Counted from the stretch's first letter, positions 3,157 to 29,776 are shown. The stretch: DNA of 64,000 nt from Vicinamibacterales bacterium (GCA_050183355.1 JBFXBH010000003.1:15131-79130); one strand, 5' to 3'. The notes: generated from the sequence alone by a model not told the origin. Translations and numbers: made by a program.

Positions 3157-4373
3157 CCGCTCTCCACCCGCGCCCGCGCCGCTTCCGGCTCGGGCCTGGA
3201 CTCCGTGGTGCCGGGCTCCTTCAGCAGGTGGCCCGTCAGGATGCAGATGACCCGCTCCTGCTCGCCGATCCAGCCCGACGCCCGGAGCGACTTGACGCCG
3301 GCCAGCGCCGCCGCCGACCCGAGTTCGCAGCCGATGCCGTCACGCCCGATCACCTGTCGCGCCTCGGCGATCTCGTCGTCGGTCACGTCGATGGTCGTGC
3401 CGTTGGTCAGCTTCAGCGCGCGGACGGCCTTGCGCCACGACACCGGGGCGCCGATCCGGATCGCGGTCGCGATCGTCTTCGGGTCCTTGACCGGCGTCAG
3501 CTCCGACGCGCCGCTCCTCCACATCCGCACGAACGGGTTGGCGCCCTCGGCCTGAATGACCGCCACGCGCGGCAGCCGGTCGATGAGCCCCAGCGCCATC
3601 AGATCCTCGAGCGCGACGCCGACCGCCGACACGTTGCCGAGGTTGCCGCCGGGCAGCACGATCACGTCGGGCGCCTTCCAGCCCAGCTGCTCCATCAGCT
3701 CCACGGTGAACGTCTTCTGCCCCGCCACGCGGAACGGGTTGAGCGAGTTGAGGACGTACGTCCTCTCGTCCGCGCCCGCGAGCATGCCGGCCAGCGCGTC
3801 GTCGAAGTTGCCGCCGACCCGCACGAGCTCCGCGCCGTAGGCCTCGGCCTGTGCCACCTTCGCGGAGGCCACCGACTCGGGCAGGAACACGCGCGCCCTG
3901 AGCCCCGCGCGCACGGCGTAGGCGGCCATCGACGCCGCGGTGTTGCCCGTCGACGCGCACGCGACGAATGTCGCGCCACGCACGGCGGCGCGCGTGACGG
4001 CGGCCGTCATGCCGAGGTCCTTGAACGAGCCCGTCGGATTCCAGCCGAGGTGCTTGATGTAGAGGTCGTTGACGCCGGCGAAGCGGCCCGTCGCCAGCCC
4101 CTTCAGCACGGGCGTGTTGCCCTCGCCGAGCGTGACGATGTCGTTGACGCTCTCCGTGAGACCGGCCAGCAGCTCACGGAACCGCCACACGCCGCTTCGG
4201 TCCGCCGGCTCGATCGACGACCGCCGCTCCGACCAGAGCGCCCGCAGCTCGGCGGCCGACATGGCCGGGCGTTCCGGCACGAGCTCGAGCGGCGCGGCGC
4301 ATTCCGGGCACACGCGATCCTCGCGGAGGCGCGACGCCTCGACACCGCAGGGTTTGCTGCACCGCAACTGCAT
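3150..4373 (-). CDS. thrC: threonine synthase
   Basis: The track ORF 3150..4475 is trimmed to ATG 4373 (MQLRCSKPCG...), 2 nt after the hom stop. It has the motifs NPTGSFKDLGM, ASTGNTAAS and LPGGNLGN. Confidence 0.9.
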   Translation of the reverse strand: MQLRCSKPCGVEASRLREDRVCPECAAPLELVPERPAMSAAELRALWSERRSSIEPADRSGVWRFRELLAGLTESVNDIVTLGEGNTPVLKGLATGRFAGVNDLYIKHLGWNPTGSFKDLGMTAAVTRAAVRGATFVACASTGNTAASMAAYAVRAGLRARVFLPESVASAKVAQAEAYGAELVRVGGNFDDALAGMLAGADERTYVLNSLNPFRVAGQKTFTVELMEQLGWKAPDVIVLPGGNLGNVSAVGVALEDLMALGLIDRLPRVAVIQAEGANPFVRMWRSGASELTPVKDPKTIATAIRIGAPVSWRKAVRALKLTNGTTIDVTDDEIAEARQVIGRDGIGCELGSAAALAGVKSLRASGWIGEQERVICILTGHLLKEPGTTESRPEPEAARARVESGC

Positions 4374-8536: not shown

Positions 8537-8625
8537 GCCTGAGTGGCGGAACTGGCAGACGCAGGAGACTCAAAATCTCCCACCGGTCACCCGGTGTGTG
8601 GGTTCGATTCCCTCCTCAGGCACCA
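8537..8625 (+). tRNA. tRNA-Leu (anticodon CAA), encoded CCA
   Basis: Acceptor stem GCCTGAG/CTCAGGC; anticodon stem GGAGA/TCTCC with loop CTCAAAA; long variable arm CACCGGtcacCCGGTG; T-loop TTCGATT with one U-U mismatch in the T-stem; ACCA at the 3' end. Confidence 0.85.
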
Positions 8626-18357: not shown

Positions 18358-20361
18358 ATGTCACTGACCGTCGTGAACTCCGCCTGCCCGCTGGACTGCC
18401 CGGACGGGTGCAGCCTGTCCGTCACCGTGGAGAACGGCAAGGTCACCGTCATCGACGGCTCCCACGCCAATCCCACGACGGGCGGTTTCATCTGCAACAA
18501 GGTGCGCCGCTTCGGGGAGCGGGTCTACGGCCCGGACCGCGTGCTCTATCCGCGCGTCCGGAAGGGGCCGAAGGGGCTCGGGCTCTTCGAGCGCGTGTCC
18601 TGGGACGAGGCCCTGGCCCGCGTGGCCGAGGGGCTGGCCTCGGCGCGCGACACATGGGGCGGCGAAGCGATCCTGCCCGTCTCCTACGGCGGCTCGAACG
18701 GCCTGCTGACGCAGGACACGAGCGACGCGGCGCTCTTCGCGCGGCTCGGGGCCTCGCGTCTCGCGCGCACGCTGTGCGCCGCGCCGACGGGCGCGGCCAA
18801 CATGGCGATGTACGGCAAGATGCCGTCGGTCGTCTATCAGGATGTCCCCGAGGCGCGGTTCATCATCCTGTGGGGCCTCAATCCGTCCGCCTCTGGGATC
18901 CACCTCGTCCCCTACGTGCGGGACGCGCAGAAGAAGGGCGCGACGCTGGTGGTCGTCGACCCGCGCGTCACCCCGCTGGCGAAACAGGCGGACATCCACC
19001 TCGCCGTGCGCCCCGGCACGGATCTGCCCGTGGCGCTCGCGCTGCACCGGTATCTGTTCGACGAGGGGCACGCGGACCAAGCGTTCCTCGCGGAGCACGC
19101 CGTCGGCGCCGACCGGCTGCGGGCCAGAGCTGCTGAGTGGACGTTCGAGAAGGCGGCGGCGGAAGCCGGCATCTCCGCTGACGACCTGCGCCGCGTCGCG
19201 GAGGGCTATGCGGCGGCCTCCCCCGCGCTCGTCCGCTGCGGCTGGGGTCAGGAGCGCAACCGCAACGGCGGCAACGCCACGCTCGCGATCCTCGCGCTGC
19301 CGGCCGTCGCCGGCAAGTTCGGCGTCCGCGGCGGCGGCTACTCGATGAGCAACTCCGCCTCATGGGGTTTCACGCGCACGTGGATGGAGAACGCGCCGGC
19401 CTCGAGCCGGCTGGTCAACCTGAGCCGCCTCGGCCACGCGCTCACCGAGCTGAACGATCCTCCGGTGAAGGCGCTGTTCGTCTACAACTGCAACCCGGCC
19501 GTCACCGTGCCGGACCAGGCGCGGATGCTGCGCGGCCTCGAGCGTGAGGACCTCTTCACCGTGGTCTTCGAACAGGTGATGACGGACACGGCGCAATACG
19601 CGGACGTCATCCTGCCGAACACCACGTTCCTCGAGCACTACGACATCGCCCGGGCGTACGGCCCGCTGTCCATGGTGCTGGCGCGCCCGGCCATCGAGCC
19701 CCGGGGCGAGTCGCGCTCGAACGCCGAGGTGTTCGGTGAGCTGATCGACCGTCTCGGCCTCGGCCGCGAGGGCGACGCCCGCGGCGAACTCGAAGAGATG
19801 GTGCAGGTGATGGGCGCCATCCCCGGCCAGGCTGGCGAGGGGCTCCGGGATCACGGCGTGGCCGAGCCGCCATTCGGGGGGCGCCCCATTCAGTTCGTGG
19901 ACGTCTTCCCGCGCACGGCCGACCAGAAGGTCCACCTGTGGCCCGACGGGCTGGACGCACAGGCGCCGGCAGGCCTGTACGGTTACCAGGCCGACCCGAC
20001 GACGGCCGCCTATCCGCTCGCGCTGATCTCCCCCGCCAGCGACCGGACGATCAGTTCCACGCTGGGTGAGCTGCCGCGGCCCGAGAGCATGCTGGAGATC
20101 AACCCGGCGGACGCCGAGCCCCGCGGCATCACCGACGGCGCGGCCGTGCGCCTGTTCAACACGCTCGGCGAGGTCCGCTGCAAGGCGCGCGTGGCCGCGT
20201 GGGTCCGGCCCGGGATCGTGTCCCTGCCAAAGGGCCTGTGGTTCCGGCACACCGCCAACGGCCGCACGAGCAACGTGCTCATCCCCGACACGCTCTCGGA
20301 CCTCGGCGGCGGCGCCTGCTACAACGACGCCCGCGTACAGGTCGAAGCCATCCCGCAGTAA
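18358..20361 (+). CDS. molybdopterin-dependent oxidoreductase (DMSO-reductase superfamily, soluble, N-terminal 4Fe-4S)
   Basis: 667 aa. N-terminal CPLDCPDGCSL...C cluster motif, molybdopterin-binding regions, and a C-terminal beta-barrel domain (INPADAEPRGI..G..V). Confidence 0.85.
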   Translation: MSLTVVNSACPLDCPDGCSLSVTVENGKVTVIDGSHANPTTGGFICNKVRRFGERVYGPDRVLYPRVRKGPKGLGLFERVSWDEALARVAEGLASARDTWGGEAILPVSYGGSNGLLTQDTSDAALFARLGASRLARTLCAAPTGAANMAMYGKMPSVVYQDVPEARFIILWGLNPSASGIHLVPYVRDAQKKGATLVVVDPRVTPLAKQADIHLAVRPGTDLPVALALHRYLFDEGHADQAFLAEHAVGADRLRARAAEWTFEKAAAEAGISADDLRRVAEGYAAASPALVRCGWGQERNRNGGNATLAILALPAVAGKFGVRGGGYSMSNSASWGFTRTWMENAPASSRLVNLSRLGHALTELNDPPVKALFVYNCNPAVTVPDQARMLRGLEREDLFTVVFEQVMTDTAQYADVILPNTTFLEHYDIARAYGPLSMVLARPAIEPRGESRSNAEVFGELIDRLGLGREGDARGELEEMVQVMGAIPGQAGEGLRDHGVAEPPFGGRPIQFVDVFPRTADQKVHLWPDGLDAQAPAGLYGYQADPTTAAYPLALISPASDRTISSTLGELPRPESMLEINPADAEPRGITDGAAVRLFNTLGEVRCKARVAAWVRPGIVSLPKGLWFRHTANGRTSNVLIPDTLSDLGGGACYNDARVQVEAIPQ

Positions 20362-20396
20362 GTCGCAAGGCGCGCTTCCCACGACGGGCGTCGCAC

Positions 20397-20507
20397 GGCC
20401 GGGGTTCACAGTTCGTGGGCTCACTGGGCGCCCTGCACCCCGGCTTGTTTACAAGCATTCGCCCTCGAACTGCGAATCCCCGACCGCACGCCACCCGCTG
20501 AGGGAAG
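20397..20507 (-). repeat. hairpin repeat element, copy 1 (inverted relative to copy 2)
   Basis: It contains the reverse complements of the conserved cores TCGAGGGCGAATGCTTGT and GAGCCCACGA, flanked by self-complementary arms (20397-20415 / 20466-20485). Confidence 0.75.
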
Positions 20508-20510
20508 CCT

Positions 20511-20556
20511 GTCTCGACGAGCAGGCACGCGCGTCCCCGCGGGCGGACGTCGAGAC
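20511..20556. repeat. independent stem-loop between repeat copies 1 and 2
   Basis: GTCTCGACG (20511-20519) and CGTCGAGAC (20548-20556), a 9-bp perfect inverted repeat with a 28-nt loop that contains CCCGCGGG. Confidence 0.6.
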
Positions 20557-20595
20557 CGTTCGGATGACGACGCAGCAGCCTCACGGCGACACGCC

Positions 20596-20707
20596 ACTTC
20601 CTCGGCGGTGGCGTGTGGCCGGGGATTCGCTGTTCGAGGGCGAATGCTTGTGGTCAAGCCGAGGGAACCGTGGCGCCCAGTGAGCCCACGAACAGCGAAC
20701 CCCGGCC
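20596..20707 (+). repeat. hairpin repeat element, copy 2
   Basis: Arms GGCCGGGGATTCGCTGTTCG (20617-20636) and CGAACAGCGAACCCCGGCC (20689-20707). Cores ...TCGAGGGCGAATGCTTGT... and ...GAGCCCACGA.... About 85% identical to the reverse complement of copy 1. Confidence 0.75.
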
Positions 20708-20859
20708 GCGCGACGCCGGCTCCGGGGAGTGACCTGTCGCGTCCGGCTGCCCGCGCGACGCCGTCATGGGAGGGTCCAGTGTCGCGTCACCGCCGTACAT
20801 GACAAACGGGCGCCGCACCGGAGTGCGACGCCCGTTCGATGTTGCCGCGGAGGCCCGGC

Positions 20860-22539
20860 TTACTGGACCTTCACCACCAGCGCGGCCCGGCGGTTGATCG
20901 CCCGGCCCGCGGCCGTGCTGTTGTCCGCCTTCGGGCGCTCCTCGCCGTAGCTCACCGTCGAGAACCGCTCCGCGCTGACGCCGCGGCTGACCAGGTAGTC
21001 GCGGGCCGCGTTGGCCCGGCGCTCGCCGAGCGCGAGGTTGTACTCGGCCGTGCCGATGCTGTCGCAGTGTCCTTCGATCGTCAGGCGGAGTTCCGGGTTC
21101 TCACCCAGCGTCTTCACCGCGTCGTCGAGGATCTGCACGGCTTCCGGCTTCAGGTTGTACTTGTCGAAGTCGAAGTGCACGTCTTCGAACGTGTACGTCT
21201 TGACCGGCGGCTTGATCACCTGCAGCGTCACCGTGCTCGTCGCCGTGCCACCGCGCGGATCCGTGGCGACGACCGTCGCCGGCACGTTGCCTTCCTGCAT
21301 CGGCGCGGTCCAGACCGGGTTGGTCACCGTCGCGTTGTTGAACGTGCCCGTCGGCGCGGACCACTTGTAGGTCAGCGTCTCGCCGTCCGGGTCGCTGCCC
21401 GTCACGTTGAGCTGCGACGTGGTGCCGATCGGCAGGATGCACGGGTCACACTTGATCGCGCCCAGCACCGGATTCTTGTTCGCCGGCGGAGGCGGCGGGG
21501 GCGGCGGCGGAGCCGGAGCCGGCGGCGGGGGCGGCGGAGGCGGCGGGGGCGGCACGTAGACGGCCACGCCCGGGTGGAAGCCCACGCGGACGTCCCAGCC
21601 GAACCCGTTGCGCTCGATAGTGGTGCCGGCGACGTTGCGCGTGCCCGTGCGGCGGCTGTAGCTCAGGCCGCCGTGCACGAAGAAGCCGCGCTTGTCCTGC
21701 CACACCGGGCCGACGCGCAGCTGCAGCGGGTCGTGCGCGCGGCTGTCGGCGAACAGGATGCTGCCGTCCGAGCCACGATGCAGCCCCGTCACCGTCGTCG
21801 CATCGCTCATGCGCAGCTCGCCGTCCGCTTCGGCCAGCAGCCGGAGCGGCGTCCGCGTCGGCAGCGCCAGGCCGAGGCCCCAGCGGGCGCCGTTGGCCAC
21901 GTCGAACAGGTCCGGATCCTTGCGCATGATGGCGCCGACGTACCCGGTCAGCTCCACCCGCTTCGACAATTCGCGGCTGGCGATGAAGTCAATCTGACCC
22001 GTGAGGGCGTTGGTGCCGGCCTGCGGCGGCCCTGTGGGCGCCGAGAGCGAGCCACGCAGCGCCAGGCTGACGGCATCGTTCCGGCCCTGCGAGAGCAGGT
22101 TGACCTTCGCGCCGACGATCAGGGGGCGCAGCAGCGTCTCGGACCACCCGTCGTTCACGTAGGGATAGTCGACGTCGGCCCCGCCGTAGCTGGTATTGCC
22201 GGCGTTGAAGAGCGGGTTCCGCACGGCCCGACGCAGGCGGACGCTGCTCACCGAGGCGAAGAGTTCGAGGCGGCTCGTCGCGCCGTACCCGAACGTGAAG
22301 CCCTGATCGGACACGTCAAGGAGCCCCTGGGGCCGATCGAAGTTCGCGCGAAAACCGCTGGCCGAGATCTTCTTCGCGGGCAGCGTTTCGGCCGTCGGCA
22401 CGAACCACAGGCCCGTGTCGCCGAAGAATGTGGGGAGTGCAGGACGAGTCTCCGCCTCGCTCTGCGCCAGCGCCGGCGCGGCCGCGAGCACGGACATCAA
22501 CAGTGCACAACTCAGTTTACGCACGTTCACCACCCTCAT
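20860..22539 (-). CDS. OmpA-family outer-membrane protein: N-terminal barrel-like region, poly-Pro linker, Ig/PKD-like domain and OmpA_C peptidoglycan-binding domain
   Basis: Trimmed to MRVVNVRKLSCALLMSVLAAAPALAQ. The C-terminus reads FDFDKYNLKPEA...LTIEGHCDSIGTAEYNLALGERRANAARDYL. A linker of roughly 22 residues that is almost entirely Pro. Confidence 0.85.
   Translation of the reverse strand: MRVVNVRKLSCALLMSVLAAAPALAQSEAETRPALPTFFGDTGLWFVPTAETLPAKKISASGFRANFDRPQGLLDVSDQGFTFGYGATSRLELFASVSSVRLRRAVRNPLFNAGNTSYGGADVDYPYVNDGWSETLLRPLIVGAKVNLLSQGRNDAVSLALRGSLSAPTGPPQAGTNALTGQIDFIASRELSKRVELTGYVGAIMRKDPDLFDVANGARWGLGLALPTRTPLRLLAEADGELRMSDATTVTGLHRGSDGSILFADSRAHDPLQLRVGPVWQDKRGFFVHGGLSYSRRTGTRNVAGTTIERNGFGWDVRVGFHPGVAVYVPPPPPPPPPPPAPAPPPPPPPPPANKNPVLGAIKCDPCILPIGTTSQLNVTGSDPDGETLTYKWSAPTGTFNNATVTNPVWTAPMQEGNVPATVVATDPRGGTATSTVTLQVIKPPVKTYTFEDVHFDFDKYNLKPEAVQILDDAVKTLGENPELRLTIEGHCDSIGTAEYNLALGERRANAARDYLVSRGVSAERFSTVSYGEERPKADNSTAAGRAINRRAALVVKVQ
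21480..21553 (-). repeat. GGC/GGN low-complexity tract encoding the poly-proline linker of the OmpA-like protein (approximate bounds)
   Basis: A run of ggcgg/gggcgg units, translated on the minus strand as PPPPPPPPPPPAPAPPPPPPPPPA. Confidence 0.7.
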
Positions 22540-22685
22540 GTTCTCCCGTCGAATCCTGCTTGCTATAGTGCGTGGCTCTCCTGTCGGGAACAGGCAGCTC
22601 AGCAAGCATTCTGCCAGCTTTTCCAAGGCATGTCAGCCCGAGCCGACCGAAGAATCGCCCTTGCATGCGTGGTACCATCCGTCGC

Positions 22686-27906: not shown

Positions 27907-28893
27907 GTGGGGTACACGCCGACCACCTTCCAGCCGCGGTTCCGGGGCGGTCACGCGCAGACGCTGTTCGCGTGGGCGCGCCGCCGCCAGTTCCCGACCC
28001 TTCCGCAGCCGGAGGCCCGGTACGTCGACGTCGCCGAGGACGCCCGCGTCCTCGCCCACTGCCACTTCCACGCCGACCGCACGCGCCACCCGGCGCTCGT
28101 CCTGCTGCACGGCCTCGAAGGCTCGAGCTACGCGCACTACATGCGCGGCATGGCCGAGAAGGCCTGGGCGGCCGGCTGGAACGTCATCCGGCTGAACCAG
28201 CGCAATTGCGGCGGGACCGAGCATCTCTCACGCGGGCTGTACCACTCCGGCCTGACGGCCGACGCGAAGGTCGTGCTGCGCCAGCTCATCGACGAGGACG
28301 GCATCCGGCGGGTCGCCGTGGCGGGCTACTCGCTGGGTGGGAACCTGGCGCTGCGCCTCGCGGGTGAGTTCGCCGGGACGCCGCCCGCGGAGCTCGTGGC
28401 CGTGTGCGCCGTCTCGCCGACGATGGACCTGCCCCGCTGCGTCGAGGCGCTCGAGCGCCGGACCAACGCGTTCTACCAGTGGAACTTCCTGCGCAACCTG
28501 CGCGCGCGCATGCGCCGCAAGGCTGCTGCGTGGCCGGGCCTCTACGACGTCTCGCCGCTCGACCGGATCCGCAGCATCCGGCAGTTCGACGAGACCTACA
28601 CGGCGCCCCACCACGGCTTCGAGAACGCCGCGGACTACTACCACCGCGCGAGCGCGCTCCGGGTCATCGACCGCATCGCGGTGCCGACGCTGATCCTCAC
28701 CGCCGTGAACGACCCGTTCGTGCCGCCGGCGCCGTTCCGCGAGGACGCCGTCACCGGCAATCCCCACATCACGACGGTCCTCAGCGACGACGGCGGCCAC
28801 TGTGCGTTCGTCGAACGCGCCACACCCGACTACGACGGGTACTGGGCCGAGCGCGAAGTGGTGCGGTTCGCGAGCGCCCACGCGGGCCTCTGA
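27907..28893 (+). CDS. alpha/beta hydrolase, YheT-like
   Basis: GTG 27907 within track ORF 27730..28893. Motifs HAQTLF..., LLHGLEGSS, nucleophile elbow GYSLGGN, and ...DDGGHCAF. Confidence 0.8.
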   Translation: MGYTPTTFQPRFRGGHAQTLFAWARRRQFPTLPQPEARYVDVAEDARVLAHCHFHADRTRHPALVLLHGLEGSSYAHYMRGMAEKAWAAGWNVIRLNQRNCGGTEHLSRGLYHSGLTADAKVVLRQLIDEDGIRRVAVAGYSLGGNLALRLAGEFAGTPPAELVAVCAVSPTMDLPRCVEALERRTNAFYQWNFLRNLRARMRRKAAAWPGLYDVSPLDRIRSIRQFDETYTAPHHGFENAADYYHRASALRVIDRIAVPTLILTAVNDPFVPPAPFREDAVTGNPHITTVLSDDGGHCAFVERATPDYDGYWAEREVVRFASAHAGL

Positions 28894-28919
28894 CGCCGGC
28901 CACCGCCCCGCCGCAGTGC

Positions 28920-29029
28920 GCGCCGACAGGCGGGGACCTCACTGATCGAGGGCGAATGCTTGTGAAACCGCGTCAAGGGTCCACCGCGGCTCTGAGCCCA
29001 CGAGCAGTGAGGTCCCCGCCTGTCGGCGC
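28920..29029 (+). repeat. hairpin repeat element, copy 3
   Basis: Perfect 25-bp terminal inverted repeats GCGCCGACAGGCGGGGACCTCACTG (28920-28944) and CAGTGAGGTCCCCGCCTGTCGGCGC (29005-29029). They enclose ATCGAGGGCGAATGCTTGT...GAGCCCACGAG. Confidence 0.8.
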
Positions 29030-29071
29030 GCATTCCCGCGGGTCAGCAGCCCGTCGACTGGCTCCGCTCGC

Positions 29072-29776
29072 TCAGGACAATCCGAGGCGCTCGCGCAGGA
29101 TGCGCGCGAACTCGGGGCCCTTCCCGGCGTCCTCGTGCTTGAAGTACACGTAGACGTCGCGGGCGCCGGCCGTCTTCTCGCGGATCACATCCGCCCAGCG
29201 GGCGAGATCGTCCGGGGTGTAGCCCTCGTCGCGCAGCCGGAAGTAGGCGTAGTCCGCCGTCATCTCCACCGGCGCCGAGATCTTCTCGGAATCCGCCACG
29301 CAGAGCGCCAGATTCCTCGACCGCAGGATCTCGAGGATCTCGTCGTCGAACCACGACGCGTGGCGGAACTCGAACGCCGCGCACGCGCCGTCCGGCAGCG
29401 TCGCCACGAACTCGCGCAGCAGCGGCGCATCCTTCCGGTGATACGGCGGAAGCTGCACCAGCACGGCGCCGAGCTTCGGCCCGAGCACACGCGCCGTCTC
29501 GAAGAAGCGCGCGACCGGTTCGGCCACGTCCTTCAGCCGCTGGTCGTGCGTGATGCGCCGGGGCGCCTTGAGCGTCAGCTTGAAGCGCTCCGGCGTCTGG
29601 GCCGCCCAGCCCTCGAGGATCTTCGGCGTCGGTGCCCGGTAGAACGTGTAGTTGATCTCGACGGTCGGCAGTCGCTCGGCGTAGTACGCGAGCATCTTCG
29701 TGGACGCGAGCTTCTCCGGATAGAAGCTGCCCTTCCACTCGGGGTAGTTGTAGCCGGAGGTGCCGACCCAGATCAT
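29072..29776 (-). CDS. DUF72 (YecE-like) protein
   Basis: The C-terminal 234 aa of track ORF 29072..30769, from MIWVGTSGYNYPEWKGSFYP...INYTFYR, the typical DUF72 N-terminus. Confidence 0.85.
   Translation of the reverse strand: MIWVGTSGYNYPEWKGSFYPEKLASTKMLAYYAERLPTVEINYTFYRAPTPKILEGWAAQTPERFKLTLKAPRRITHDQRLKDVAEPVARFFETARVLGPKLGAVLVQLPPYHRKDAPLLREFVATLPDGACAAFEFRHASWFDDEILEILRSRNLALCVADSEKISAPVEMTADYAYFRLRDEGYTPDDLARWADVIREKTAGARDVYVYFKHEDAGKGPEFARILRERLGLS

Follow-up and report, generated by a model that had tools for sequence, protein, structure and literature searches.

The stretch of DNA analysed here (64,000 nucleotides of a Vicinamibacterales bacterium, GCA_050183355.1, JBFXBH010000003.1:15131-79130; hereafter the window) contains three copies of a long imperfect palindrome, whose family is confined to convergent-gene spacers of one genus-level Vicinamibacterales clade of soil Acidobacteria. 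With a probability of roughly one half, this is a low-copy, lineage-restricted, deletion-prone and non-coding palindromic insertion family that behaves like a miniature inverted-repeat transposable element (MITE) or like a REPIN, a hairpin built from repetitive extragenic palindromic (REP) sequences, and not a conserved RNA gene. A preliminary description, made from the sequence of the window alone, had recognized in the element the signature of a selected structure, which holds as far as covariation and a conserved core are concerned, whereas the stems evolve at about the neutral rate and carry symmetric indels of the kind left by template switching. A reading of the element as a conserved RNA gene is contradicted by presence or absence between genomes that are about 88% identical, by copy numbers ranging from 0 to at least 3 at a single locus (locus 1, below), by orphan arms and by restriction to one narrow clade.

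The existence of three hairpin copies, as reported in that description, was confirmed. The 18-mer TCGAGGGCGAATGCTTGT has three exact matches in the window, at 20451-20468 (minus strand), 20634-20651 (plus strand) and 28946-28963 (plus strand), against a chance expectation of 0.03 and with three or more matches in 0 of 100 shuffles; GAGCCCACGA follows 27-30 nt 3' of it in all three cases, and each match lies in a very stable hairpin. When the strand on which the core reads as written is taken as canonical, copy 1 (w1, 20362-20518, covariance model match at 20396-20486 with 102.9 bits) lies on the minus strand and begins right behind the TAA stop codon of a molybdopterin oxidoreductase gene, while copy 2 (w2, 20585-20741, match at 20616-20708 with 108.3 bits), with the termini GGCGACA... 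and ...TGTCGCG, and copy 3 (w3, 28898-29051, match at 28928-29021 with 73.5 bits) lie on the plus strand. Full-length folds reach -103 kcal/mol for w1 and -105 kcal/mol for w2, the minimum free energy (MFE) fold of w3 is -90.6 kcal/mol (z = -11), and a separate fold of copies 1 and 2 gives -66.7 and -70.3 kcal/mol on the canonical strand, the hairpin z-scores of the window copies ranging from -6 to -11. Folded at full length, the copies of the family all form hairpins of about 155-170 nt closed by 45-54 pairs (-141 kcal/mol for the copy in L004, a related genome), the general plan being an element of about 155 nt with arms of about 45 bp and an asymmetric centre of about 45 nt.

The third copy had been delimited at 28920-29029, which is too short: its palindrome spans 28898-29051 (the other copies measure about 157 nt), lies between the stop codon of a hydrolase gene and the end of a DUF72 gene, and has inverted-repeat arms at 28898-28953 and 28996-29051 that are 84% complementary. 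The perfect arm pair attributed to this copy does form an uninterrupted stem in the MFE structure, although its length is 29 rather than 25 pairs (28916-28944 paired with 29005-29033), and it is followed inwards by an A·G mismatch, three base pairs, an A·A mismatch, the GGGC/GCCC helix and a variable apex. The 5' half of the core (28949-28963) consists of the A of the mismatch, the GGGC strand and GAATGCTTGT, and is the same in 10 of the 11 copies known from the window and its relatives; the 3' half (28993-29000) consists of TGA, the GCCC strand and the partner A; and the apical region between them (28964-28992) diverges at about the neutral rate, with differences at 13 of 25 positions, and gaps besides, relative to the orthologous L019 copy (L019_3). 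The arm of copy 3 had been described as entirely different from the others, yet GGGGACCTCACTGATCG aligns to GGGGA-TTCGCTGTTCG with 12 identities in 16 positions and one indel. The exchange of T-A for A-T that sets copies 1 and 2 apart was found as described. The location of copy 3 between convergent genes was also read correctly (hydrolase stop at 28893 on the plus strand, DUF72 stop at 29072 on the minus strand), and copies 1 and 2 are likewise placed. In addition, w1 (20438-20495) and w2 (20607-20664) are mutually inverted, with 88% complementarity over 58 nt across a gap of 111 nt, and could pair into a larger alternative structure resembling a head-to-head dimer; the same inverted arrangement is kept in the related genome L039.

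The distribution of the element among relatives provides evidence for an insertion family. Eleven distinct copies were found in four related genomes (86-91% nucleotide identity), all of them in the oxidoreductase/OmpA spacer (locus 1) or in the hydrolase/DUF72 spacer (locus 2), which lie 8.5 kb apart, and orthologous as well as paralogous copies were found in L001/L019, L004, L021 and L039. The L004 and L019 genomes are sisters (about 90-91% identity), the window and the L039 genome show 86-89% identity to these two, and L025, L028 and L041 stand further out (80-89%); protein-anchored look-ups supplied the further orthologous loci, i.e. a fourth lineage (L039/L040) and the more distant relatives. 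At locus 1 the window carries two copies and an orphan arm, L039 two copies in the same inverted arrangement and a partial arm, L019 at least three copies and a run of N, and L004 one copy; L025 and L041 have none (a 96-bp spacer in the latter) and L028 has an unrelated hairpin with a perfect 36-bp stem, locus 1 of L033, L034 and L035 falling outside the covered DNA. Locus 2 is filled in two lineages, the window and L019 (L020-L024 too), and empty at seven loci of six other sources: in the L004 genome (L031, and L032, identical there), where the genes overlap by 12 bp, in L025 (4 bp spacer), in L028 (18 bp spacer) and in L033, L034 and L035 (overlap, 26 bp and 20 bp, respectively), whereas it lies outside the covered DNA in L039 and L041. 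Between genomes that are 86-91% identical, copies have been gained, duplicated in inverted orientation, rearranged and deleted. Orphan arms remain at window 20750-20786 (plus strand), where cccgcgcgacgccgtcatgggagggtccagtgtcgcg matches the right arm of the L001C and L004 copies and represents the 3' outer arm of a further copy of that type, and at L039 8060-8088. Given the tree, the simplest history is that four copies were present in the clade ancestor and that losses followed, two locus-1 copies and the locus-2 copy having been lost in the L004 genome and most of one copy in the window.

Searches beyond the two loci support the view that the family appears small and of low copy number. A covariance model built from eight copies and run over the window, another 15.5 kb of the source contig and all relatives, about 330 kb in total, found no copies beyond loci 1 and 2; no fourth copy was found in 79.5 kb of source contig by this model together with an inverted-repeat scan of the extra 15.5 kb; and a scan for complementary 12-mers in the window and seven related loci revealed no additional element-like hairpin. 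An exact scan for TCGAGGGCGAATGCTTGT in 185,579 species genomes gave five matches, of which two are real (GCA_964400405.1 and GCA_044356435.1, one exact 18-mer each), the 18-mer being carried by 6 of the 11 known copies. The JGI metagenomes gave 0 matches to the two-core pattern and 13 to the 18-mer, all by chance, viral contigs gave 0 matches to the core strings, and blastn against plasmid and phage collections gave no match.

Several of these loci show further peculiarities. In L031 (2868-2879) and L032 (1413-1424), where the hydrolase gene shares 12 bp with the DUF72 gene, the hydrolase protein is longer by 3 aa, which looks like an imprecise deletion that took the element and both original stop codons. 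The partial extra arm of L039 (8060-8088, gggcgtcgcgtggccggggttcgctgt) lies directly upstream of the first full copy and is a further sign of rearrangement at locus 1. The run of N at L019 1346-1445 (corresponding to L001 at about 3273-3372) has the same part of copy A on either side (a duplicate ...tcgatacccggcttgaccacaagcattcgccctgaaacagcgaatccccgtccac) and could be an assembly gap or a masked stretch in a repeat cluster, so that the true copy number there is uncertain. The palindrome in the locus-1 spacer of L028 (1761-1890; -111.7 kcal/mol, z = -9.3) has an internal direct repeat, TCGCGCTCCGCGG, and was found nowhere else in the DNA covered; as a family member it was rejected, as its covariance model score is 22.6 bits (E = 0.06) and it has no common core, and it is regarded as a separate palindrome. 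Long palindromes seem to arise repeatedly at this spacer. Finally, GCA_964400405.1 (L001/L019, CAYNUO010000010.1) is titled 'uncultured Bifidobacteriaceae bacterium', and yet its 62-kb contig shows synteny and 83-88% identity with the Vicinamibacterales window; the bin probably carries a wrong label or is contaminated.

Orthologous copies made it possible to compare evolutionary rates within the element. Divergence between the window and the L019 genome is 0.33-0.34 at 4-fold sites; between w1 and L001A there are differences at 10 of 41 stem positions, 1 of 26 core positions and 8 of 24 apical positions, and between w3 and L019_3 at 15 of 41, 1 of 25 and 13 of 25 positions, respectively. The stems (0.24-0.37) and the apex evolve at about the neutral rate, the stems being still paired, while the core of both orthologous pairs shows 2 differences in 51 positions, about tenfold below the neutral rate (binomial P of two or fewer differences at p = 0.33 of about 5e-7 by our own arithmetic), as the claim of core conservation had implied. 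The conserved letters, A / GGGC / GAATGCTTGT ... (CAG)TGA / GCCC / A, amount to about 25 nt. The core had been called invariant, which largely holds for A-GGGC-GAATGCTTGT ... TGA-GCCC-A, intact in 10 of the 11 distinct copies and with invariant GGGC/GCCC pairs, but not for its outermost letters (TCG.../...CGA), which are covarying stem positions and read TTTC/GAAA or ATCC/GGAT in relatives. The exception is L001B, where the core has decayed (6 of 26 positions changed) and the arms have been kept (3 of 41 differences from w2); the G·A positions are retained there and the A30-U71 pair has become C-G. On the other hand, L001C and L004 show no substitution and a single 1-nt indel over the 90-nt element, whereas their genomes differ by 0.27 at 4-fold sites.

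The claim that the outer arms differ in sequence and stay complementary was borne out. In an alignment of the 11 distinct copies to the covariance model, 96.5% of stem cells are paired, 12 of 31 pairs are changed on both sides, and the covariation score of 0.304, compared with 0.133 in shuffles, is reached in 0 of 500 shuffles; when the partner is slid by 1-3 columns, at most 49% of cells are paired and at most four pairs are changed on both sides, and an alignment of eight copies made with MAFFT only gives the same picture. Structure maintenance is real. Compensatory change alone, however, is no proof of selection on structure, as template switching could explain much of it. It has been documented that replication template switching creates and repairs hairpin stems in single events (PMC8794818), and the orthologues w3 and L019_3 differ by symmetric indels, GACAGGC/GCCTGTC being present on both arms of w3 only and TGC/GCA of L019_3 standing in place of a bulged A; arm-to-arm copying is favoured over stepwise compensatory selection because of the neutral-rate stems and these symmetric 3-bp and 7-bp indels. 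The exceptions to pairing are asymmetric: among the non-Watson-Crick cells of the long helix there are 11 G·U, 0 A·C and 8 others (an estimated 6-8 independent events), wobble being confined to one strand, and in 7 of 8 copies the complement folds less stably than the canonical strand. Both observations indicate that one strand matters as a single-stranded hairpin, be it RNA or single-stranded DNA (ssDNA), and they count against a purely neutral view. Real constraint is demonstrated for the core of about 25 nt and for one strand, and for nothing more.

These findings can be accommodated in a scheme in which the element would have spread in the clade ancestor by insertion or local duplication, in the manner of a MITE or REPIN, and would since then mostly have decayed by deletion. 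Arm complementarity would be kept largely through arm-to-arm copying by replication template switching, which accounts for the neutral rate of the stems as well as for the 3-bp and 7-bp indels mirrored on both arms, with an added contribution of selection against mismatches in the single-stranded hairpin (RNA or ssDNA) of the canonical strand. The conserved core may be the site read by whatever protein acts on the hairpin. In this regard, both strands beside the GGGC/GCCC helix read 5'-Y-G-A-R-3' (CGAA and UGAG), a context that tandem sheared G·A pairs prefer; such pairs are a common recognition platform and can be formed by the core bases at this place (5'-CGAA / 5'-UGAG). A transcript reaching the element from either convergent gene would carry a very stable hairpin in its 3' untranslated region (3'-UTR), and this hairpin could block read-through or 3' exonucleases, as REP sequences do, presumably as a side effect and not as the reason for the element's existence.

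A number of observations weigh against an insertion family of this kind. No transposase of any kind was found among the called genes and open reading frames (ORFs) in about 80 kb of source contig, and there is no convincing target-site duplication. A possible one, TCAC at 20581-20584 with a right partner TCAC at 20787-20790 (plus strand), is at most suggestive and surrounds w2 together with the orphan arm; all four genomes have the left TCAC, but on the right they show TCAC, TCAG, TAGA or TAAG, and no direct repeat was found at locus 2 or around w1. The copy number appears very low, with three copies at two loci in 79.5 kb, and, all copies being traceable to four ancestral positions, no insertion younger than the clade is documented. 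Furthermore, the centre is the most conserved part here, whereas the ends are in true MITEs and REPINs, and the lack of substitutions between L001C and L004 suggests that this copy has been strongly constrained or recently exchanged.

A rival reading is that of a host-selected structured RNA, either a cis-acting 3'-UTR element or a small RNA, in which the long closing stem would present to a protein a conserved three-way-junction core with tandem G·A, as in a k-turn or k-junction, and the paralogues would be gene duplicates and not mobile copies; we regard this as possible, though unlikely. The slow core (2 of 51 differences against a neutral 0.33), the confinement of wobble to one strand (11 G·U against 0 A·C), the greater stability of the canonical strand in 7 of 8 copies and the lack of substitutions over 90 nt between L001C and L004, where neutral divergence is 0.27, all speak for such an RNA, and even the decayed L001B keeps the tandem G·A, its A30-U71 to C-G change fitting a real extended helix. 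The k-junction has been defined in RNA (PMC10573300), and in several copies the junction fits this blueprint, with the third helix on the non-bulged strand. As drawn from the sequence, it comprises a C helix, a 3-nt AGU loop, G·A/A·G, the NC helix GGGC/GCCC and, as third helix, GCTTG/CAAGC. Among these parts, the NC helix and the G·A/A·G positions do not vary and the 5-bp third helix is found in most copies, but the apical helices that the k-junction needs, including its C helix, are not kept in w2, w3, L019_3 and L039a, and the drawing is a lead and not a finding. It tells against a structured RNA that close relatives lack the element, or have lost it, at both loci and that its orientation flips inside one spacer. 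Moreover, promoter and terminator signals are lacking, the stems evolve at the neutral rate although stems of functional RNAs are normally slower, no exact core match was found in metagenome and viral scans and, among genome contigs, only in two metagenome-assembled genomes of the clade, and there is no BLAST match in plasmid or phage collections.

Alternatively, the palindromes could be a functionless by-product, made and homogenized between convergent genes by replication template switching and local duplication, so that the common core would reflect recent ancestry only. The mechanism is documented (PMC8794818), neutral-rate stems and symmetric multi-nucleotide indels are what it would leave behind, an unrelated hairpin with a 36-bp stem occupies the same locus in L028, and deletions and orphan arms are frequent. 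This explanation is nevertheless doubtful, as the core, compared in two independent orthologous pairs, is conserved about ten times better than the neighbouring apical loop and the 4-fold sites (P of about 5e-7), wobble is distributed asymmetrically (G·U against A·C) and the same core recurs at a second locus 8.5 kb away. It is comparably improbable that the element is a new kind of structured single-stranded element, in which a dedicated protein would recognize a fixed three-way-junction core (k-junction-like, with tandem G·A) displayed on a long, freely evolving closing stem; this protein would be either a mobilization enzyme recognizing the hairpin loop or a 3'-UTR RNA-binding regulator of the convergent genes; RAYT transposases, unlike such a putative loop-recognizing enzyme, read the hairpin foot. 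A primary role as bidirectional intrinsic transcription terminator of the convergent pairs, to which the position of all copies between convergent 3' ends and the extreme stability of the hairpins on both strands would lend themselves, is very improbable, given that there is no U-tract on either side and the terminator scan was empty, that locus 1 already has a separate conserved hairpin with A/T runs in all genomes, that relatives manage with 4-26 bp spacers or overlapping genes at locus 2, and that termination needs neither an asymmetric conserved core nor 45-bp arms.

Several known systems come close to the element. REPINs and REP-containing bacterial interspersed mosaic elements (REP-BIMEs) are REP doublets that form hairpins and are mobilized by RAYT Y1 transposases (PMC3116915, PMC3733652, PMC6006769), and compensatory changes are also common in REPIN hairpins (PMC3116915). 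Like them, the present element is non-coding, extragenic and mostly downstream of genes, forms long hairpins in ssDNA or mRNA, and occurs singly, in inverted (head-to-head) pairs and in clusters, with copy numbers that vary between close relatives. Unlike in REPs, there is no GTAG, GTGG or CGTC tag standing unpaired 0-2 nt 5' of the hairpin foot; GTGG occurs in w1, w2, L001A and L039b, but there it is part of the paired outer arm, some 13 nt beyond the GGGG run, and it is absent from w3, L001C, L004 and L019_3. Whereas in REPINs two inverted REPs of 20-40 nt enclose a less conserved spacer, the arms of the element measure about 45 nt, are not self-palindromic and match one another to about 75% from copy to copy. 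Only a handful of copies is visible compared with tens to hundreds per genome, and no RAYT (Y1_Tnp) was found among the called genes and ORFs of about 80 kb of source contig or in about 150 kb of relatives. REP or REPIN membership was rejected, as the foot tetranucleotide, REP-built arms and conserved ends are all wanting.

With MITEs the element shares a length of about 155 nt, a lack of coding capacity, long terminal inverted repeats, a possible 4-bp direct repeat (TCAC) at one copy and, at both loci, filled and empty sites among relatives. The termini CGCGACA.../...TGTCGCG are common to w2, L001C, L004 and L039b, and w1 has ends of the type GTCG(A)GACAGG, those of w3 being ill-defined. Unlike in MITEs, the terminal repeats of different copies are only about 75% alike, although the two repeats of any one copy are almost perfectly complementary; the target-site duplication does not recur at other copies, no parent insertion sequence is known and copy number appears very low. 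The preliminary description had allowed that the element might belong to an already described REP or MITE family; it behaves like one, but no described family matched. The terminal inverted repeats (TIRs) of TIRtrons, which are associated with TIRYT Y1 transposases, have been described in Acidobacteria and carry the motif GGGG[AT][CG]A[CG] (PMC3733652, PMC6006769), resemble the element in being moderately abundant long inverted repeats of Acidobacteria that include a GGGG run and sometimes form dimers. A TIRtron repeat was rejected all the same, the arms reading GGGGATTC, GGGGACCT, GGGGTTTA and GGGGTGCT and departing from the motif; published TIRtron TIRs flank a gene, whereas the arms of the element flank a 45-nt core, and no TIRYT gene was seen. 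A last likeness, drawn from sequence only, is that to k-turns and k-junctions (PMC10573300, PMC4005666), in which tandem G·A/A·G pairs likewise stand beside a Watson-Crick helix, with a 3-nt loop and a third helix opposite.

Other identities were considered and set aside. In agreement with the preliminary description, which had recognized no Rfam family, a scan of the whole window at gathering thresholds (Rfam 15) found tRNA only, Acido-1, Acido-Lenti-1, 6S and ribozymes remaining unmatched, and scans of both loci at E <= 10 added sub-threshold chance matches, of which only generic miRNA-precursor hairpin models, far below their thresholds, fell on the elements. A sigma-70 transcription unit or U-tract terminator was rejected, no promoter being found and no terminator-like site in 20200-21000 or 28700-29300 on either strand, and no T run follows any arm. 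The core contains GAGGG-N3-ATG, but the loop is 27, 28 or 29 nt long and neither frame nor peptide of a small ORF is conserved. A tRNA-like T-arm (GTTCGA) is replaced by GTTTCA, GATCGA or GATCCA in other copies; an IHF-site-like sequence in the core does not fit the consensus WATCAANNNNTTR; and an integron attC site is not supported, in that there is no GTTRRRY at the arm ends, the convergent neighbours are housekeeping genes and no integrase is found among the annotated genes.

To our knowledge, palindromic extragenic repeats have hardly been described in Acidobacteria, and this family is unusual in that its centre is constrained and not its ends. Its orthologous copies permit a clean rate comparison between neutral-rate yet paired stems and a frozen core, and it therefore represents a compact natural test case for selection on structure versus self-templated correction by template switching. 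For RNA discovery pipelines it implies that a functional RNA should not be called just because a long hairpin in a repeated element shows covariation. The family is small and present in few uncultured genomes, so that its broader impact is limited unless the partner protein is found.

With respect to the neighbouring genes, w3 is preceded by a YheT-like alpha/beta hydrolase gene (27907-28893, plus strand; Pfam Abhydrolase_1, 2.3e-20; 328-aa orthologues; in-frame translation) and followed by the DUF72 gene (29072-29775, minus strand, upper end approximate; Pfam DUF72, 1.6e-63; 233-aa orthologues). The 3' end of the latter is unlike that of all relatives, as the window has about 29 extra bases at 29043-29075 (gtcgactggctccgctcgctcaggacaatc), placed between the ancestral stop context (tcagcagccc) and the conserved ...cgctcgcgcaggatg, with a new stop at 29072 and an altered C-terminus; this may be collateral damage of the adjoining insertion. 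At the other locus, w1 and w2 are flanked on the left by the molybdopterin oxidoreductase gene (18358-20361, plus strand; Pfam) and on the right by a convergent gene for an OmpA-family protein (20860-22626, minus strand; Pfam OmpA, 2.4e-24). Just downstream of this OmpA-like gene and outside the element, a separate short GC hairpin flanked by A/T runs (20803-20838; CGGGCGCCGCAC...GTGCGACGCCCG) is kept in all relatives, also in those that lack the element. It probably is what really terminates the locus-1 convergent pair in both directions, serving the OmpA gene; the simple terminator scan passes over it because its T run is short. The sole RNA gene of the window according to Rfam or ARAGORN is a tRNA-Leu (anticodon CAA) at 8537-8625 on the plus strand.

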